Notes: generated from the sequence alone by a model not told the origin. A DNA stretch of 64,000 nt from Desulfosoma sp. (GCA_037481835.1 JBBFKW010000014.1:64001-128000); one strand, 5' to 3'; counted from the stretch's first letter, positions 50,339-56,922 are shown. Program-made: numbers and translations.

Positions 50339-50571
50339 TCACAATTTCAGCGGCACTTCTGCGAATTCTTCCGGTGTGATTTCAATCTCGCGAAGGGTTT
50401 CCCTGATCAATGGACGGGCAAGGTCCCTTGCCGGGTGATTCGAAATGGTGGTCGTCCTCCCATCAGGATGGCGAAAAAAACATGACCTCCCTTTTGCCGG
50501 CTCGCCTGAAAACCTGGACGCAACAGCACTTTCTCCATCGCCTTACAGTCTATGATGGGAAGCGGAGTCAT
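50339..50571 (-). pseudogene. hicA: HicA-family toxin, frameshifted
   Basis: MTPLPIIDCKAMEKVLLRPGFQASRQKGGHVF / shift in a T7 run / RHPDGRTTTISNHPARDLARPLIRETLREIEITPEEF; 233 bp, one base short of frame. Confidence 0.8.
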
Positions 50572-50690
50572 ACGGCGACTTCAATCTGTTGCAATCCCAC
50601 AAACCGGGGCAAATCTTCCATTGACCCCTGGTATTCCTCCAGGCACAACTCCAACACTTCTTTAAGGTTTCTCTGAAGCTCATCTAACTC
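50568..50690 (-). pseudogene. hicB: HicB-family antitoxin, 5'-truncated remnant
   Basis: ELDELQRNLKEVLELCLEE...FVGLQQIEVAV*; ATGA overlap with hicA; in-frame TGA directly upstream and no start codon. Confidence 0.72.
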
Positions 50691-50750
50691 TCACCGAGTC
50701 TTCTGCGTCACGTCGTGCACGTTCCTGGTTACCTAATCGGGTGATTCTAG

Positions 50751-50868
50751 GAGCTTGTCCGAGAATGGCATATTCCTGGGAGCGCGGGCGTCTCGCCCGC
50801 TTCTCGTGCGGGCCGGAGGCCCGCGCTCCCAGGAGAAGAGGCCTTCGGGTTCGTTCTCAGACAGCCTC
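50751..50868. mobile_element. 118-bp MITE, copy 3 (inverted relative to copy 2)
   Basis: CTAG|GAGCTTGTCCGAGAA...TTCTCAGACAGCCTC|CTAC. Confidence 0.88.
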
Positions 50869-50921
50869 CTACGTGCGCTGTTGTTGGGCGTGGGCTTCGC
50901 TGATCCTGCGCCCCGCCGGGG

Positions 50922-51331: not shown

Positions 51332-51601
51332 GGAAATATACGTCCTTTCCGACGAGGGGCCAAAGGCGGCCCTCACGGGCGCTCGACATCATGTGGAACG
51401 ATCCCATTGAGGTCAGGGTGTGGTTTTCGGTAAACCGAGCTCTGCACCTACGAAAAGCTCTCGATTTGTTAGAGCTCTTCCTGCTATGGTGGACACCCGT
51501 TCGGAACAGTCCATGTGCACTTCAGACCGAAAACTTGAGCGATTTGCACAAGGGATGCCTGCTCCACTCGAATCTGTGACGGGTCTTTTTGATCGACGCT
51601 C

Positions 51602-52234
51602 ATGGCTGATTATTACATCCGCTGCGCGGACGAATACCATCGACAGACCTTTTTCCTGGACCCGAGCTCTTTCCTTCTTCCGCTTGCGGAAAAACTGCCT
51701 CCGGGGGCTCTCATCCTCGATGTGGGCTGCGGCTCCGGCCGCGACCTCTTGTGGTTTAAGAACAGGGGATTTCGCGTCCTGGGGTTTGAACTCTCCTATC
51801 CTCTGGCGTCCTTGGCCCGACGGATCGTCGGGTGCGAGATTATCGTCGGAGATTTCGAACGGTTCGATTTCTCCCCTGTCCACGCCGATGGGCTGTTGCT
51901 TGTCGGCGCCTTGGTCCATATTCCCCACGGCGCCCTCGCGCGGGTCCTCGGGAACATCCTGCCTGCCATCAAACCCCAAGGGTTTGCGCTGCTCAGCATG
52001 AAGGAAGGGTGCGGTTTCTCCCAAGATTCATACGGGAACACATTCTATTATTGGACGGACGAAAAACTTCGGAAGCTTTTCGAAACACTCGCGCTTGAAC
52101 CGCTGCACATGCAAAGACAAGTGTCTCTGAAGAACCGACAGGACGTCTGGCTGAGTTACGTCCTCAAAAAAAGACAAGTCCACGGGAGGGCCCTCGTTGA
52201 CGCGCACGGTCTACAGGAAGCTGGTTCGCGATAA
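51602..52234 (+). CDS. Class I SAM-dependent methyltransferase
   Basis: ILDVGCGSGRD, LVHIP, LSMKEG; overlaps the next gene by 38 nt. Confidence 0.85.
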   Translation: MADYYIRCADEYHRQTFFLDPSSFLLPLAEKLPPGALILDVGCGSGRDLLWFKNRGFRVLGFELSYPLASLARRIVGCEIIVGDFERFDFSPVHADGLLLVGALVHIPHGALARVLGNILPAIKPQGFALLSMKEGCGFSQDSYGNTFYYWTDEKLRKLFETLALEPLHMQRQVSLKNRQDVWLSYVLKKRQVHGRALVDAHGLQEAGSR

Positions 52235-55097
52235 TATCCCGGATCTTATCCGCCGGGAGGGGAAAACCCCCTGCGTCGTGACCTTGAGCGATGAGGCGTT
52301 CAAAGACGCCCTGGCCCTGAAGCTCCTTGAGGAGGCGCATGAATTCTTTCGATCGTGGCGCGCGGGAAACCCGAGGGAAGTTTTGAAAGAGTCCGCCGAT
52401 CTCTTGGAAGTCATCCTGGCGGCGCTGGAAGCACAGGGCCTGCGATGGGAGGACCTGCTCCGGGAGCGTGAAGAAAGGCGAGCCCAGCGCGGGGCCTTTC
52501 TGAAGAGGCTCTTTCTCCAGTGGGTCGGTGAAGATCCCTCAAACGGCGACGTCTTTGAGGACGTTCCGGACTTGATCATCGGGCCCCTTGAAAGCGATCG
52601 GTTGGTGAGGCTCATTAAATCCGAAATCGCTCGGAGCAAAGCCGTCTCCATCGCGTCCGCCTTCTTTTCCCCGGCCGTAATGAACCTGATGCTTCGCGAT
52701 TTCACGGAGTTTCTCGACCGGGGGCACGATCTGCGGATCATTGTCTCCACCATGGGAAACATGATCCCGCCGGAGCACCTTGTGCACCTCAAAAACAATA
52801 TCCCGAAAATAAGATTGCGCATCTACCATCCTGCGGACATCCCGTACGACCAGAATCCTCCCAATTTTCACGTCAAGGTCTACCTTTTCCATCGCCTCGA
52901 TGGAACCGGCGCTTTCCTCATAGGATCGTCCAATTTCACCCAGGCGGGTCTTTGCACCAATGTGGAATGGAATTACTTCTCAGCCCACGAAATCAACCTT
53001 CCCTTCGCGGAAAAGTCCGCCTTTTCCAAGGCGCTCCAGACCTTCGACCAATACTGGGAAAAGTATGCCGTCGAGCCGAGTGAGGAATTTCTCCAAGCCT
53101 ATCGGAGGCGTTTTCAGGAAAGCCGCCGGGCGATGGCCGGTGCGGACGAAGGGGTGCCGGGTCTGGTCGATGTCTTTTTTACCAAACAAAAGGCTTTTAG
53201 GACGGAGAGAATCCCAAGAATCCAGGCTAACGAAGCCCAACAAGAGGCCCTTCGGCGGCTGGACCGCCTTCGACGTCACGGCGTTTCCAAGGCCGCCGTG
53301 ATCGCCGCCACTGGTGTGGGCAAGACGTACCTCGCCGCCATGGACTTCAAGCAGTCCGGCGCCAAGAGGCTCCTTTTCGTCGCCCACCGTGAAAACATCC
53401 TCGATGCAGCCCTCCGCAGTTTCAGACGGGTGCTCGGCGATGAAAAGTTCGGGGTGCTCTACGGAGGCGGCAATCATGCCCATGACACCGGGGATTCCCT
53501 CTTCGCCATGATCCAAACCTTGAGCCGAGAAGACCATCTCGGGAAGTTCCCTCGGGAAGCTTTCGACTATATGGTGGTGGACGAATTTCACCACGCCATG
53601 GCGCCGAGCTACCTAAGGGTCGTGGAATACTTTCGCCCCAAGTTTCTCCTGGGGCTGACGGCGACCCCGGAACGCATGGATGGGAGGGATGTCCTCGCCC
53701 TGTGCGAGGGCCACGTCGCCTACGAACTGCGCCTTCTCGAAGCCATCGACAGAGGCCTTCTTTGCCCGTTCCATTACTTCGCCATTTACGATCCCGTGGA
53801 TTACGAACAGATCACGTGGCGAGGAACGCACTACGATCCGGACGAACTGACCGAGGCTTTGAAAAACGACACGCGGACGGCGATCCTCGCCCGGAACCTG
53901 AAACGCTATCTGCCGTCGTTTGGAAAGGTCAAAGCCCTGGCCTTTTGCAGCTCGGTGGCGCACGCTCGATACACGGCCCACATGTTGAACACCGAACACG
54001 GCATCGGCGCCGCGACCCTGACGGGCGAGAGCCCAGAAGAGGAGAGAAGCGAAGCGATTCGGAGACTGCGAGATGAGTCGGATCCACTGCAGGTGCTGTG
54101 TGTCGTGGACATCTTCAACGAAGGCGTGGACATCCCCGAGCTGACCCACGTGCTCTTTCTGCGGCCCACGCTGTCGTTCACGGTCTTCCTGCAGCAATTG
54201 GGTCGAGGGCTGCGGCGCGTGGATCGCAAGGAATTCGTGGTGGTCATCGACTTTGTCGGCAATTTTCGACGGGCCCACGTCGCTCCCCTGGCGCTTCAAG
54301 GGTTCGCTTCGGAAGAGGAATTCGCGGAAGCGGTTCGAAATGGTGTGCCCCCGGTGGCTCGCCTCCCCAAGGGGTGTTTTCTCGATATCGACACTCCCGT
54401 GCGTCGTCTCTGGGATGAAGAGATCCGAAAAATCCTGCGCGGTCAGCTGGGTGCATCCGAACGGCTCAAACTGCTCTATCTGGAAATCAAGGAGGATTTG
54501 GGCGGGAAGTCCCCCTCCCTGGTGGATCTCGTCGCCAATTCCAGGGGTGTGGACCCTCAGCGGTTCATCCACCACTTTAACGGCTGGCTTCGAACGAAGC
54601 TCTACTGTGAGGAGGATCTATCGGCTTTCGAAAAGTCCCTGTTGGATACTCCCGGGGAAGCGTTTCTCCTCCATCTGGAAAAAGATTTGCATCCCACCAA
54701 ATCCTATAAGATGGTTGTGCTGAAAAGCCTCTTGAAAATGCCGGGGACGCGGTGGGCGGTGGAGGATATCGCGCGGAGATTCCTGGATTATTACGTGAGG
54801 AATCCCGATAAGGCCGCCGATTACGAAGAACTTGCCCGGCACGGGAATCCTGGGGAATTCCCGCTGAAGAAAGTCGTTTCCAAGCTCAAGTCCATGCCCT
54901 TGCATTATCTGAGCAATACGGAAAAGGATTTCTTCATTTTCGACAAGACTCAAGGGAAGTTTGAGCTCAAAGCCCACGTGATTCCCTATTGGAAGGACCA
55001 GAGATTCCGCCAAATGGTGGAAGAAAGAGTCGAATACGGGCTCATCCGTTACTTTCAGCGGCTGAGGGACGAATCCGAGAACGCGCCGAGCCCGTGA
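52197..55097 (+). CDS. Fusion: MazG-like NTP pyrophosphohydrolase + PLD nuclease + SF2 (DEAD/DEAH) helicase + C-terminal domain
   Basis: KLVRDNIP...KLLEEAHEF...ESADLLEV; FHVKVYLF...GSSNFT; ATGVGKT, DEFHH, GLTATPER, FNEGVDIP, QQLGRGLR; TKSYKMVVL; TTG start with GGGAGG. Confidence 0.9.
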   Translation: MTRTVYRKLVRDNIPDLIRREGKTPCVVTLSDEAFKDALALKLLEEAHEFFRSWRAGNPREVLKESADLLEVILAALEAQGLRWEDLLREREERRAQRGAFLKRLFLQWVGEDPSNGDVFEDVPDLIIGPLESDRLVRLIKSEIARSKAVSIASAFFSPAVMNLMLRDFTEFLDRGHDLRIIVSTMGNMIPPEHLVHLKNNIPKIRLRIYHPADIPYDQNPPNFHVKVYLFHRLDGTGAFLIGSSNFTQAGLCTNVEWNYFSAHEINLPFAEKSAFSKALQTFDQYWEKYAVEPSEEFLQAYRRRFQESRRAMAGADEGVPGLVDVFFTKQKAFRTERIPRIQANEAQQEALRRLDRLRRHGVSKAAVIAATGVGKTYLAAMDFKQSGAKRLLFVAHRENILDAALRSFRRVLGDEKFGVLYGGGNHAHDTGDSLFAMIQTLSREDHLGKFPREAFDYMVVDEFHHAMAPSYLRVVEYFRPKFLLGLTATPERMDGRDVLALCEGHVAYELRLLEAIDRGLLCPFHYFAIYDPVDYEQITWRGTHYDPDELTEALKNDTRTAILARNLKRYLPSFGKVKALAFCSSVAHARYTAHMLNTEHGIGAATLTGESPEEERSEAIRRLRDESDPLQVLCVVDIFNEGVDIPELTHVLFLRPTLSFTVFLQQLGRGLRRVDRKEFVVVIDFVGNFRRAHVAPLALQGFASEEEFAEAVRNGVPPVARLPKGCFLDIDTPVRRLWDEEIRKILRGQLGASERLKLLYLEIKEDLGGKSPSLVDLVANSRGVDPQRFIHHFNGWLRTKLYCEEDLSAFEKSLLDTPGEAFLLHLEKDLHPTKSYKMVVLKSLLKMPGTRWAVEDIARRFLDYYVRNPDKAADYEELARHGNPGEFPLKKVVSKLKSMPLHYLSNTEKDFFIFDKTQGKFELKAHVIPYWKDQRFRQMVEERVEYGLIRYFQRLRDESENAPSP

Positions 55098-55166
55098 CGG
55101 CCGCCGCGCGGCGGGTTCTCATGGGATGATGTGAGTCGGCCGATGGCGTGAATGCACAAAACGCGT

Positions 55167-55195
55167 TTGACGGTGTTTCCCCTTTCACGTAAAGT
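55167..55195 (+). promoter_or_regulatory. Candidate sigma70 promoter
   Basis: TTGACG-N17-TAAAGT upstream of the acyl-CoA synthetase. Confidence 0.45.
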
Positions 55196-55278
55196 CCGTG
55201 GTGCGCGGATTGTTCATGTTCTCTGGAAATATCCATGTCGGCTTCTCAATCCCCCCCCACACACCGAGGAGGATGCTC

Positions 55279-56922
55279 ATGACGGATCACGCTCACCTTT
55301 CACCGGATGCCGCCGTTCAGGAATGGTTGAAGGAGTACGGAGGAACCCGGGTCAACGCAGCCCACTTCATCTGCGACCGACACACGGATATCCCCGAACG
55401 CATCGCCCTCTTTTATGAAACCGCAGGCGGAGAAAGTTCCAAGTGGACTTTTCGGGAGCTCCGCGATCTTTCGCAAAAACTGGCCGCATTTCTCCGGGCC
55501 GCCGGGGTCGGCAAAGGGGATCGGGTGGCGGCCATGCTGCCCAAGAGTCCCGAGCTGCTCATCACCACCTTGGCGGTTTGGCGCCTGGGTGCGGTCTATG
55601 TCCCCTTGTTCACCGCCTTCGGCCCCGATGCCATCGACTATCGGGTCTTGGACAGCCGCTGCAAGATGGTGGTGACCAACAGCGCCCATCGGCCCAAGAT
55701 TTCCCAAACCCAGGCGTACGGGCAGGGGGCCCTGGAGGTGGTCACCGTGAGCGACGGCCTGGGCAAGGGTCTTCGCAAGGGCGACTACAGCTTCTGGGCG
55801 GAACTGGAAGGGGCGGGGTCCCTCGACGAGGTGGAATGGGTGACCGGGGACGATCTGATGATCCTCCTTTACACCTCGGGGACAACCGGGACGCCCAAGG
55901 GGGTGGAAGTCCCGATCAGGGCTCTGGCCTCCTTTGAAACCTATATGCGATTCGGCTTGGATCTTCGTGAAAACGACGTCTACTGGAACATGGCCGATCC
56001 GGGGTGGGCCTACGGTCTTTACTACAATCTCATCGGAGCCATGCTCATCGGCAAGGGGACCCTCTTTGTCAATGCCCCCTTTGACCCGTCTGTGATCTAC
56101 AGGGTACTCGAAAAATACCGGGTGACCAATTTCGCGTCCGCTCCCACGGCCTATAGGGCCCTCAAGGCCCACGGCCTGGAGGCGGCCCGAAAACATCGCT
56201 TCCACATTCGATGCGCATCCAGCGCCGGGGAGCCCCTCAATCCCGAAGTCATCCAATGGTTCCAGTACCTGTGGGGCGTGCAGATCCACGACCAGTACGG
56301 ACAGACCGAACTGGGCATGGCGGCCAACAACCACCATCACCCCGCCGCCGAACGCCCCATCAAGCTCGGGTCCATGGGCCCGTCCATGCCCGGGTTCCGC
56401 ATGGTCGTGGTCGATGATGAGGGCAACGAGCTGGGACCGGGCCAGGAAGGCCACTTTGCCGTGGACACCCGCCAGTCCCCCGTCATGTGGTTCCGGGGAT
56501 ACTGGAACGCGCCCGACAAGACGGCGGAAAAGTTTGTGGCAAGCGGCCGGTATTACCTCACCGGAGACACCGTGAGCCGGGACGAGGACGGCTATTTCTA
56601 CTTCAGCGGTCGAAGTGACGACATTATCCTGAGCGCCGGGTATCGCATCGGGCCCTTCGAAGTGGAATCGGCCATCATGAAACACGACGCCGTGGCGGAG
56701 GTGGCCGTGATCGGGGTTCCCGACGAGCTGCGGGGAGAAGTGGTCAAGGCCTATGTGGTGCTCAAGCGGGATTACCAGGCCGGCGAGGCGCTGGCGGAGG
56801 AAATCAAGGGATTCGTCAAGGCGCAGCTTTCCGCCCACCAGTACCCCCGGGAGATAGAATTTGTGGACCAATTGCCCAAAACGCCCAGCGGCAAAGTCCA
56901 AAGGTTCCTTTTGAGAAAATGA
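55279..56922 (+). CDS. Acyl-CoA synthetase (AMP-forming, short/medium chain)
   Basis: YTSGTTGTPKG, DPGWAYG, YGQTE, YLTGD, GYRIGPFEVES, LPKTPSGK; AGGAGG RBS. Confidence 0.93.
   Translation: MTDHAHLSPDAAVQEWLKEYGGTRVNAAHFICDRHTDIPERIALFYETAGGESSKWTFRELRDLSQKLAAFLRAAGVGKGDRVAAMLPKSPELLITTLAVWRLGAVYVPLFTAFGPDAIDYRVLDSRCKMVVTNSAHRPKISQTQAYGQGALEVVTVSDGLGKGLRKGDYSFWAELEGAGSLDEVEWVTGDDLMILLYTSGTTGTPKGVEVPIRALASFETYMRFGLDLRENDVYWNMADPGWAYGLYYNLIGAMLIGKGTLFVNAPFDPSVIYRVLEKYRVTNFASAPTAYRALKAHGLEAARKHRFHIRCASSAGEPLNPEVIQWFQYLWGVQIHDQYGQTELGMAANNHHHPAAERPIKLGSMGPSMPGFRMVVVDDEGNELGPGQEGHFAVDTRQSPVMWFRGYWNAPDKTAEKFVASGRYYLTGDTVSRDEDGYFYFSGRSDDIILSAGYRIGPFEVESAIMKHDAVAEVAVIGVPDELRGEVVKAYVVLKRDYQAGEALAEEIKGFVKAQLSAHQYPREIEFVDQLPKTPSGKVQRFLLRK

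Follow-up and report, generated by a model that had tools for sequence, protein, structure and literature searches.

A MazG-fused SauUSI-family enzyme without an SRA reader, and a recurrent partnership of such nucleases with nucleotide-processing proteins

A 64,000-nucleotide (nt) stretch of the genome of Desulfosoma sp. (GCA_037481835.1 JBBFKW010000014.1:64001-128000; here called the window, with positions counted from its first letter) carries two overlapping genes on the + strand. The first (51602-52234) encodes a small methyltransferase, and the second (52197-55097) a 966-residue protein that joins a MazG-like domain, a phospholipase D (PLD)-family nuclease, a superfamily 2 (SF2) motor and a coupler-like C-terminal domain. 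The product of the second gene is a SauUSI-family enzyme that lacks the SRA reader, carries a fused MazG domain and has a dedicated small methyltransferase, and the pair is best explained as a horizontally acquired two-gene defence module. The locus appears to be one example of a much wider and apparently undescribed rule, by which PLD-helicase nucleases are linked or fused to partners of four unrelated folds (MazG-like, methyltransferase, NUDIX and HIT) that share an action on nucleotides. As to what such a module does, we tentatively favour, at somewhat less than even confidence, a SauUSI-family nuclease served by nucleotide-pool cleaning partners that would remove the free form of the modification under attack.

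The survey of partners covers 80 genome loci, one genome per species, which rank highest among 572 tblastn-confirmed relatives, together with five loci from related genomes. All open reading frames (ORFs) of these 85 loci were scanned with our own profiles for the MazG, methyltransferase, PLD, motor and C-terminal domains and with NUDIX and HIT profiles built from Pfam-identified ORFs, and a partner was counted when fused to the nuclease or encoded within 1.5 kb of it. A nucleotide-processing partner accompanies 83 of the 89 PLD-helicase genes, corresponding to 80 of the 85 loci. Methyltransferases are the most frequent kind (43 loci), followed by MazG-like proteins (33), NUDIX (11) and HIT (11). 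Two kinds of partner are present in 16 loci and three in one (L012), and HIT and MazG occur together in eight loci, in one of them as a fusion. Five loci are partnerless: in L073 the gene is broken, L036 is a 4-kb contig on which the query is matched only from residue 29 onwards, without a detected MazG domain, L057 has a methyltransferase 1,675 nt away, beyond the 1.5 kb limit, and the remaining two are L010 and L067. Among 42 database relatives picked by hand for N-terminal extensions, there are 11 HIT-PLD-helicase fusions and one methyltransferase-PLD-helicase fusion (P0258), the N-terminal part of which aligns with the entire window methyltransferase at 31% identity. RefSeq labels on two plasmids agree independently with the partner linkage: on a Lactiplantibacillus plasmid the homologue lies between genes annotated '(deoxy)nucleoside triphosphate pyrophosphohydrolase' and 'nucleotide pyrophosphohydrolase', and on a Pseudoalteromonas plasmid it comes directly after one annotated 'class I SAM-dependent methyltransferase'.

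The linkage is also reciprocal, and its members are exchangeable. The methyltransferase family has five matches at E <= 1e-40 among 41 related genomes, and all five adjoin a MazG(-PLD-helicase) gene, one of these loci being a decayed remnant; the other 16 matches are weak, partial and generic. A methyltransferase gene lies directly upstream of each of the four full homologues found in these genomes; with the 43 of 85 loci above, the pairing that the original prediction had drawn attention to is conserved. In a FastTree phylogeny of 87 nucleases, which carries local supports only, relatives of the DUF3427 type form a separate clade, while methyltransferase and MazG partners are mixed among the other 76 rows and well-supported branches force at least nine changes of the methyltransferase label. 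L022, with a methyltransferase, and L047, with a MazG-like partner, lie 0.06-0.13 substitutions per site from their fork. Such exchange of partners between close relatives argues for equivalent roles. Within the sub-clade of the window enzyme, six of eight members have both a fused MazG domain and a methyltransferase. Each of the six DUF3427 (SRA-bearing) relatives sampled has a NUDIX gene directly downstream in convergent orientation, which matches the linked 'pyrophosphohydrolase' mentioned for SauUSI (PMC3141236).

Several individual loci add detail to this survey. One NUDIX partner, encoded downstream of a PLD-helicase gene (L077:11382-11792, + strand), matches the PADLOC candidate model PDC-S07 (E 4.7e-49), which means that this partner type has already been flagged as defence-associated under a candidate name. 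A 242-residue ORF that directly follows a PLD-helicase gene (L027:8235-8963, + strand) combines a HIT domain (residues 3-116) with a MazG-like domain (132-234). Two different PLD-helicase paralogues stand in tandem in one operon at L012:2546-9055, where the gene order is NUDIX, nuclease 1, nuclease 2, MazG and HIT, and likewise at L026, L076 and L077; in the tree, one copy of each pair belongs to the separate clade that includes the DUF3427 type, namely the upstream one in L012 and L076 and the downstream one in L026 and L077. A decayed copy of the module (L087:4476-5713, - strand, on contig C29 of the related genome G016) retains an intact methyltransferase gene, followed by a MazG domain split by a stop codon and no motor downstream.

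The nuclease part of the 966-residue protein (residues ~135-330, 52599-53186) is a PLD-family domain with a single HKD motif, recognised by the Pfam models PLDc_2 (143-287, 27.4 bits against a cut-off of 27) and RE_NgoFVII. It is followed by an SF2 ATPase/translocase of the DExH type (residues ~340-700, 53214-54296), with matches to ResIII (342-493, E 1.2e-31) and Helicase_C (577-673, E 9e-14). Residues 222-707, comprising the end of the PLD domain and the whole motor, align with residues 116-578 of SauUSI (7clg_A) at E 3.8e-85, and on this alignment the nuclease-motor core is clearly a SauUSI homologue. The PADLOC model mREase_IV, which describes type IV methyl-directed enzymes, matches the protein at E 1.2e-97, so that automatic tools would already name it a type IV restriction enzyme. 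SauUSI dimerises via its PLD domain (PMC7913695), and the presence of one HKD motif per chain argues that the window enzyme likewise acts as a dimer.

The catalytic residues are intact throughout. Across 26 aligned full-length relatives, which are 45-74% identical to the query, H225, K227, G243, S244 and N246 of the PLD domain are invariant, as are T372, G373, G375, K376 and T377 of the Walker A motif and DEFH at 462-465; the motor motifs TATPER and QQLGRGLR are conserved. Invariant residues also occur in the MazG-like domain (K8, R11, D12, E45, E46, E49, E65, D68 and E71) and in the C-terminal region (S836, Y837, K838 and M839). These features are therefore real and under selection rather than chance resemblances. 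All the motifs listed in the original prediction are indeed present, namely KLVRDNIP at 8-15, EEAHE at 45-49, ESADLLEV at 65-72 and TKSYKM at 834-839, together with its HxK and GSSN signatures, which correspond to H225-x-K227 and G243-S-S-N246.

Fusions of this kind are common in databases: of the 120 best matches, 99 extend over 95% or more of the query and are 44-76% identical to it, and several sources label these relatives helicase/HKD nuclease/MazG-type pyrophosphatase. For some relatives, a match to the Pfam family PF26350 is on record. The wider PLD-helicase family counts 40,509 representatives at E <= 0.001. Longer relatives (~1060-1180 residues) are extended at the C-terminus and not at the N-terminus, and add modules of ~105 residues after the coupler-like domain: module A in P0023, module B in P0114 and both in P0019. 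Neither module has a Pfam match or a PDB sequence match, nor does the 218-residue C-terminal extension of P0019 have a PDB sequence match. These modules may be readers; the window enzyme carries neither. Other relatives have a Peptidase_S24 (LexA/UmuD-like) module after the coupler-like domain (L005:8851-9351, L006:3728-4243, L008:8845-9348, P0270, P0172, P0268 and P0128), which hints at control by self-cleavage, and in P0172 it separates the coupler from the SRA half of DUF3427.

The C-terminal domain of the window enzyme (residues ~705-966, 54309-55094) is where it departs from SauUSI. An AlphaFold2 (AF2) model of residues 700-966, built with 24 sequences, has a mean predicted local distance difference test score (pLDDT) of 88.4 and is helical, with a winged-helix sub-domain and only short strands. 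In a VIA-align comparison its first match is SauUSI itself (7clg_B, residues 618-798; Z 9.3, root-mean-square deviation 2.3, 110 aligned residues). In SauUSI the helical coupler spans residues 618-805 and the SRA-fold reader of 5-methylcytosine (5mC) residues 806-953 (PMC7913695). The window chain ends after the coupler-like domain, and the SRA reader is absent. In agreement with this, the match of the Pfam model DUF3427 to the 966-residue protein is confined to profile positions 11-121 of 280 and stays under the cut-off of the model (E 0.0037), whereas relatives of the DUF3427 type give full matches in the same test (E 1e-53 to 1e-59). The original prediction had likened the protein to SauUSI-type enzymes, whose architecture is PLD, helicase and target-recognition domain (TRD). 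Its PLD and SF2 kinship stands, but the TRD does not, since the C-terminal region it had left unassigned is equivalent to the helical coupler; with the SRA domain missing, its claim that the protein cuts modified DNA is not supported either, and the enzyme is not a full 5mC-dependent member of the SauUSI type. Other searches with this region yielded little: Foldseek found nothing in the PDB at E <= 0.001 with the model, and the C-terminal alignment, run as a profile against PDB sequences, brought up nothing beyond matches at the level of chance (E 0.16 and 0.75). We also considered the partner as a stand-in for the missing SRA reader and rejected this idea, as five of the 11 HIT-fused relatives keep the SRA half of DUF3427.

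The N-terminal domain (residues 1-115, 52197-52541) belongs to the all-alpha nucleoside triphosphate (NTP) pyrophosphatase superfamily of MazG and HisE, as judged from its helical bundle and an intact EExxE...ExxD metal site; the Pfam model PRA-PH matches residues 36-94 (28.3 bits, cut-off 21.3). Stand-alone genes of ~105 residues beside related nucleases are 30-47% identical to this domain, and by sequence the two are one family. Across 24 fused and stand-alone sequences, K8, R11, D12, P15, K42, E45, E46, E49, E65, D68, R98, G99 and F101 are invariant. Atlas structure rows for the domain are NTP-pyrophosphatase clusters (template-modelling (TM) score 0.84-0.87). From this kinship, the domain may destroy modified deoxynucleoside triphosphates (dNTPs). 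The same intact and conserved site could also serve a different purpose: once activated, the MazG domain, or HIT and NUDIX as its equivalents, could drain the dNTP/NTP pool as a second effector, nucleotide depletion being an established defence strategy. We consider this quite unlikely, because the motor itself needs ATP, the ~105-residue stand-alone partners have no evident control element, and a methyltransferase cannot deplete nucleotides and yet replaces MazG in close relatives.

The methyltransferase (210 residues, ATG start) belongs to the class I S-adenosylmethionine (SAM)-dependent enzymes, and among them to the TehB-like, small-molecule type. Pfam assigns only generic class I families (Methyltransf_25/23/11, E 1.7e-12 to 2.1e-9). 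The closest solved structure is 3e23 (RPA2492), a structural genomics entry of the same family (profile E 2.4e-41; Foldseek TM 0.79 with the AF2 model, pLDDT 93.2), followed by cg3271, toxoflavin N-methyltransferase, METTL6 and TehB (2xvm, 4dq0); Atlas structure rows are labelled PF03848 TehB. The GxGxG SAM loop is kept, with G44 and G46 invariant in the family alignment. After strand 4 the window protein reads GALVHIP and the family consensus ACASLLHLP, and direct reading of the sequence confirms that DPPY/NPPY and PCQ motifs are lacking, as had been predicted. The suggestion that went with it, of an enzyme acting on a small molecule, finds support in the PDB profile, Foldseek and Atlas matches. 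Given its linkage, we regard the protein as a dedicated partner family of PLD-helicase nucleases.

A role in DNA modification was weighed as a rival and rejected as the leading reading. In a classical restriction-modification system, the methyltransferase would guard host DNA with recognition borrowed from the C-terminus of the nuclease, and the nuclease would cut unmethylated DNA. Overlapping genes with the methyltransferase in first place are typical of such systems, one Atlas cluster (rank 11) bears the automatic name 'Type II restriction-modification system, methylation subunit', and PADLOC reports a match to mad2 (E 4.7e-16). This match covers only profile positions 277-445 of 492, which is the Rossmann core common to unrelated methylases. 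The enzyme also lacks any (D/N/S)PP(Y/F/W) or PCQ motif and, at 190-210 residues across the family, has no target-recognition part. The best 60 of its 219 PDB profile matches are small-molecule, lipid or RNA methyltransferases, with no DNA methyltransferase among them or among the Foldseek matches listed, and close relatives swap the methyltransferase for hydrolases that cannot protect DNA. Restriction-modification in the classical sense is accordingly very unlikely in our view. An assignment of the protein to mad2 of the MADS system was rejected separately: the same core is matched by a type I methylase and a generic methyltransferase, and no second mad match is present among the window neighbours in PADLOC.

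The two genes overlap by 38 nt (52197-52234), as the original prediction had it for these two ORFs. The TTG start of the second places its N-terminus in register with those of homologues, and a Shine-Dalgarno-like GGGAGG (52184-52189, + strand) lies 7 nt before it, within the end of the methyltransferase gene. The overlap and the internal site suggest that translation of the two genes is coupled.

In the mechanism that we favour, the enzyme would be a dimer that moves along DNA at the expense of ATP and shreds target DNA with its PLD nuclease, target choice in the absence of the SRA reader being supplied by the coupler-like winged-helix domain or by something else. The fused MazG-like pyrophosphatase and the co-translated TehB-like methyltransferase would together form a nucleotide-pool cleaning arm that removes or disables the free-nucleotide form of the DNA modification targeted by the nuclease. 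The host would thereby be spared building the salvaged modification into its own DNA, avoiding self-restriction, so that the partner acts as an antidote, and a phage would be deprived of its modified precursors. There are precedents for hydrolases of this kind: human DCTPP1, a MazG-like enzyme, is reported to prevent misincorporation of methylated dCTP (PMC13291643, PMC4491611), and Maf proteins are reported to hydrolyse modified NTPs (PMC3899018). The antidote-first overlapping gene order and the remnant in G016, in which the methyltransferase was kept and the nuclease lost, fit an antidote role without proving it.

A number of points weigh against this mechanism. HIT enzymes work on groups attached to the alpha-phosphate rather than on modified bases, and a reading based on base modification therefore leaves the HIT partners unexplained. 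A methyltransferase is an odd 'cleaner', for which we found no precedent, and its closest solved relative, 3e23, has no known function. For the MazG-like clade, a PDB profile search returned only HisE, MazG, YpjD and MazZ, at E >= 0.011, which does not point to a known substrate. The 966-residue protein has no recognised modified-base reader, leaving modification-dependence of the nuclease unproven. In addition, the 80 loci are not a random sample and many are from Lachnospiraceae, and the 42 relatives with N-terminal extensions are a biased pick.

Lastly, an enzyme working on the free pool has no need to be fused to a nuclease, so the fusion could instead mean regulation. On such a view, MazG, HIT, NUDIX and methyltransferase would be ligand-binding switches that license the reader-less nuclease, catalysis resetting the switch, and the signal sensed would be a nucleotide produced by a phage or under stress (for example a modified dNTP, diadenosine tetraphosphate (Ap4A) or an alarmone) or the level of SAM. 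The position of the modules, fused N-terminally and directly before the nuclease domain, is in keeping with this; a clade without an SRA reader needs another trigger, and the LexA-like S24 autoprotease module at the C-terminus of some relatives is a regulatory device. Against it, the NUDIX proteins of all six DUF3427-type loci are encoded by separate convergent genes, a poor fit for an allosteric subunit, and the HIT-fused forms that keep their SRA half indicate that the partner does not simply replace the reader. Overall, we judge nucleotide sensing to be unlikely.

There is also a bolder form of the pool-cleaning mechanism, which we regard as doubtful. It proposes metabolic self-protection of the SauUSI family by NUDIX, MazG, HIT and TehB-like partners, with the SRA-less clade perhaps reading a modified backbone (phosphorothioate) and not a modified base. 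The partner would destroy the free form of the sensed modification, such that salvaged nucleotides could not mark host DNA, and MazG followed by HIT would provide a two-step route from deoxynucleoside alpha-thiotriphosphate (dNTP-alpha-S) via the thiomonophosphate (dNMPS) to the monophosphate (dNMP). The leads in this direction are weak. Residues 119-255 of the C-terminal model, with its winged helix, superpose on whole sulfur-binding domains (8h0l, Z 8.1; 5zmo, 7.2; 7ccd, 7.0), at Z values that, according to the tool, are common for helical domains, and winged helices of Orc/Cdc6 (Z ~7) and DpnI (6.8) match similarly. A second weak lead is the co-occurrence of HIT and MazG in the eight loci and the single fusion noted above, and a third comes from the kinship of the methyltransferase with the TehB type, which methylates chalcogens. 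The fourth, likewise weak, is the reported action of HINT1 on dGMPS (PMC8775712). DndC and SspD have no match in the host genome (99.4% complete), and this is weakly compatible with a phosphorothioate reading.

The distribution of the module is that of an accessory element. Full homologues are present in four of 41 related genomes and, within the genus, in two of four, where the two copies are 54% identical. Their flanks are not syntenic in the genus: the best matches to the neighbouring AMP-binding gene in the three other genomes are only 32-33% identical, and the DUF6920 gene is on other contigs in two genus genomes and was not found in the third. This patchy, non-syntenic pattern is that expected for an accessory, transferred module. 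GC content over both genes (window 51500-55500) is 0.55-0.59, compared with 0.62-0.67 in most of the upstream window, and the lower value fits recent acquisition.

The surroundings in the window are metabolic. Pfam identifies a sigma-54 activator and ferric-reductase-like, nitroreductase, DUF6920, acyl-CoA-synthetase-like, LCM methyltransferase, peroxiredoxin and SurE proteins, and of 30 neighbouring ORFs searched against PADLOC (E <= 1e-5) only the sigma-54 activator gave a match, of a generic AAA kind. The defence hotspot that the original prediction had placed here is hence not apparent, which speaks against a defence role. Elsewhere, homologues do keep company with defence genes: 13 of 16 homologue loci examined have a neighbour matching PADLOC at E <= 1e-10, a figure that comes without a background control, to the detriment of our interpretation, and that includes some models of candidate status only. 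Among these neighbours are BrxP/BrxC, JetBCD, a type I methylase with its specificity subunit, AbiO/Nhi and MzaE. On the Desulfonema magnum chromosome (L003:5968-14716), the MazG-PLD-helicase homologue has no methyltransferase; immediately downstream of it are BrxP (E 7.7e-278) and BrxC (E 0) of a BREX system, and upstream is an AbiLi/AriA-like gene.

This distribution also bears on a housekeeping alternative, in which a RadD- or XPB-like helicase-nuclease would be coupled to the removal of damaged nucleotides in DNA repair, unrelated to phage. It draws on the metabolic neighbours in the window and on NCBIfam matches of the 966-residue protein to RadD and XPB. These are sub-threshold, RadD scoring 83 bits against a cut-off of 720, and every match to NCBIfam repair and type I models is far under its cut-off. 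The distribution is patchy and non-syntenic even in the genus, the best-scoring solved relative is a restriction enzyme, and BREX, Wadjet, type I restriction-modification and Abi genes adjoin homologues. Housekeeping repair or nucleotide hygiene retains, in our estimate, only a slim chance.

Upstream of the two genes, the window contains a repeat element of ~125 nt (50747-50871) with a 27-nt inverted repeat (arms 50774-50800 and 50808-50834). Another 20 copies, 94-100% identical, are scattered over many contigs of the genome, besides many weaker partial matches, and the element looks like a miniature inverted-repeat transposable element (MITE) or a repetitive extragenic palindromic (REP) element; the original prediction had mentioned MITEs nearby. 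The same prediction had noted a decayed toxin-antitoxin pair. By eye, a frameshifted HicA-like reading can indeed be followed at 50407-50571 (- strand), but the 54-residue ORF has no Pfam match. The HicA-like reading (QKGGHVFF; 50407-50683, - strand) loses its frame after ~33 residues, and a 46-residue ORF upstream of the remnant gives, again by eye, an antitoxin-like reading in another frame.

On the usual view, a modification-dependent restriction enzyme can do without a partner, because the host lacks the modification under attack. The recruitment, exchange and fusion of four unrelated folds in 80 of 85 loci suggest an unrecognised requirement, the policing of the nucleotide pool. If this is correct, salvaged or phage-made modified nucleotides would be kept from turning the nuclease on its own chromosome, and a linkage noted for SauUSI in 2011 and never followed up would be explained. 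A function would be at hand for a large uncharacterised MazG clade and for the 3e23 methyltransferase family, the nucleases would be predicted to be toxic in a partner-dependent manner, and the substrate preferences of the partners could reveal the target of each uncharacterised type IV enzyme. To a specialist, one more type IV-like enzyme is unsurprising; the interest lies in the convergent partnership of four folds and in the testable notion of self-protection.

The available literature touches on this partnership only at its NUDIX end. The 2011 paper on SauUSI refers, as data not shown and with its function unexamined, to a conserved 'pyrophosphohydrolase / MutT-NUDIX-like' gene that accompanies SauUSI and no fewer than 60 SauUSI-like genes (PMC3141236), and small homologues of MutT next to those of SauUSI appear in a figure legend of a comparative-genomics paper from 2020. 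We found the combination of SauUSI and pyrophosphohydrolase only in the 2011 paper and in one comparative-genomics paper with its preprint, and no paper naming SauUSI together with MazG. A 2025 SauUSI preprint makes no mention of NUDIX/MutT, pyrophosphohydrolase, operon or gene neighbours. With subscription journals and supplements outside the scope of the search, no description was found of the MazG-like, HIT or methyltransferase partners, their fusions, interchange or role; among the papers listed by one further search, none names type IV restriction together with NUDIX, HIT or MazG. The papers searched describe no defence role for the TehB/3e23-type methyltransferase subfamily.

Among known systems, the nearest is SauUSI, the ATP-dependent type IV enzyme of Staphylococcus aureus that depends on 5mC or 5-hydroxymethylcytosine (7clg), with which the window enzyme shares a PLD domain, a long linker, an SF2 motor and a helical coupler in the same order. 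It differs in lacking the SRA domain, in its additional N-terminal MazG-like domain, and in having partners of the methyltransferase and MazG type rather than the NUDIX type of the sampled DUF3427 relatives; the paper on SauUSI stresses that it has no companion methylase (PMC3141236). With house-cleaning NTP pyrophosphatases (DCTPP1, MazG, Maf, and NUDIX enzymes such as MutT) the N-terminal domain has in common the all-alpha NTP-pyrophosphatase fold and the EExxE...ExxD site and, as a proposal, the hydrolysis of non-canonical (d)NTPs that keeps them out of DNA, whereas the window clade is structurally unsolved, has a KLVRDxIP N-terminal motif and is tied to a restriction-type nuclease. The methyltransferase resembles TehB and 3e23 in its fold and SAM loop but belongs to a subfamily that adjoins PLD-helicase genes. 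Likeness to the sulfur-binding domains of ScoMcrA, SprMcrA and Hga consists of a winged-helix superposition with no sequence similarity, and is a lead only. Finally, the single-chain layout of nuclease, motor and coupler recalls the type ISP enzymes LlaGI and LlaBIII, a parallel drawn for SauUSI by its authors (PMC7913695); in these, the chain itself includes an N6-adenine methyltransferase and continues beyond the coupler with a TRD, whereas the window chain stops after its coupler-like domain and is accompanied by a separate methyltransferase of a non-DNA type.

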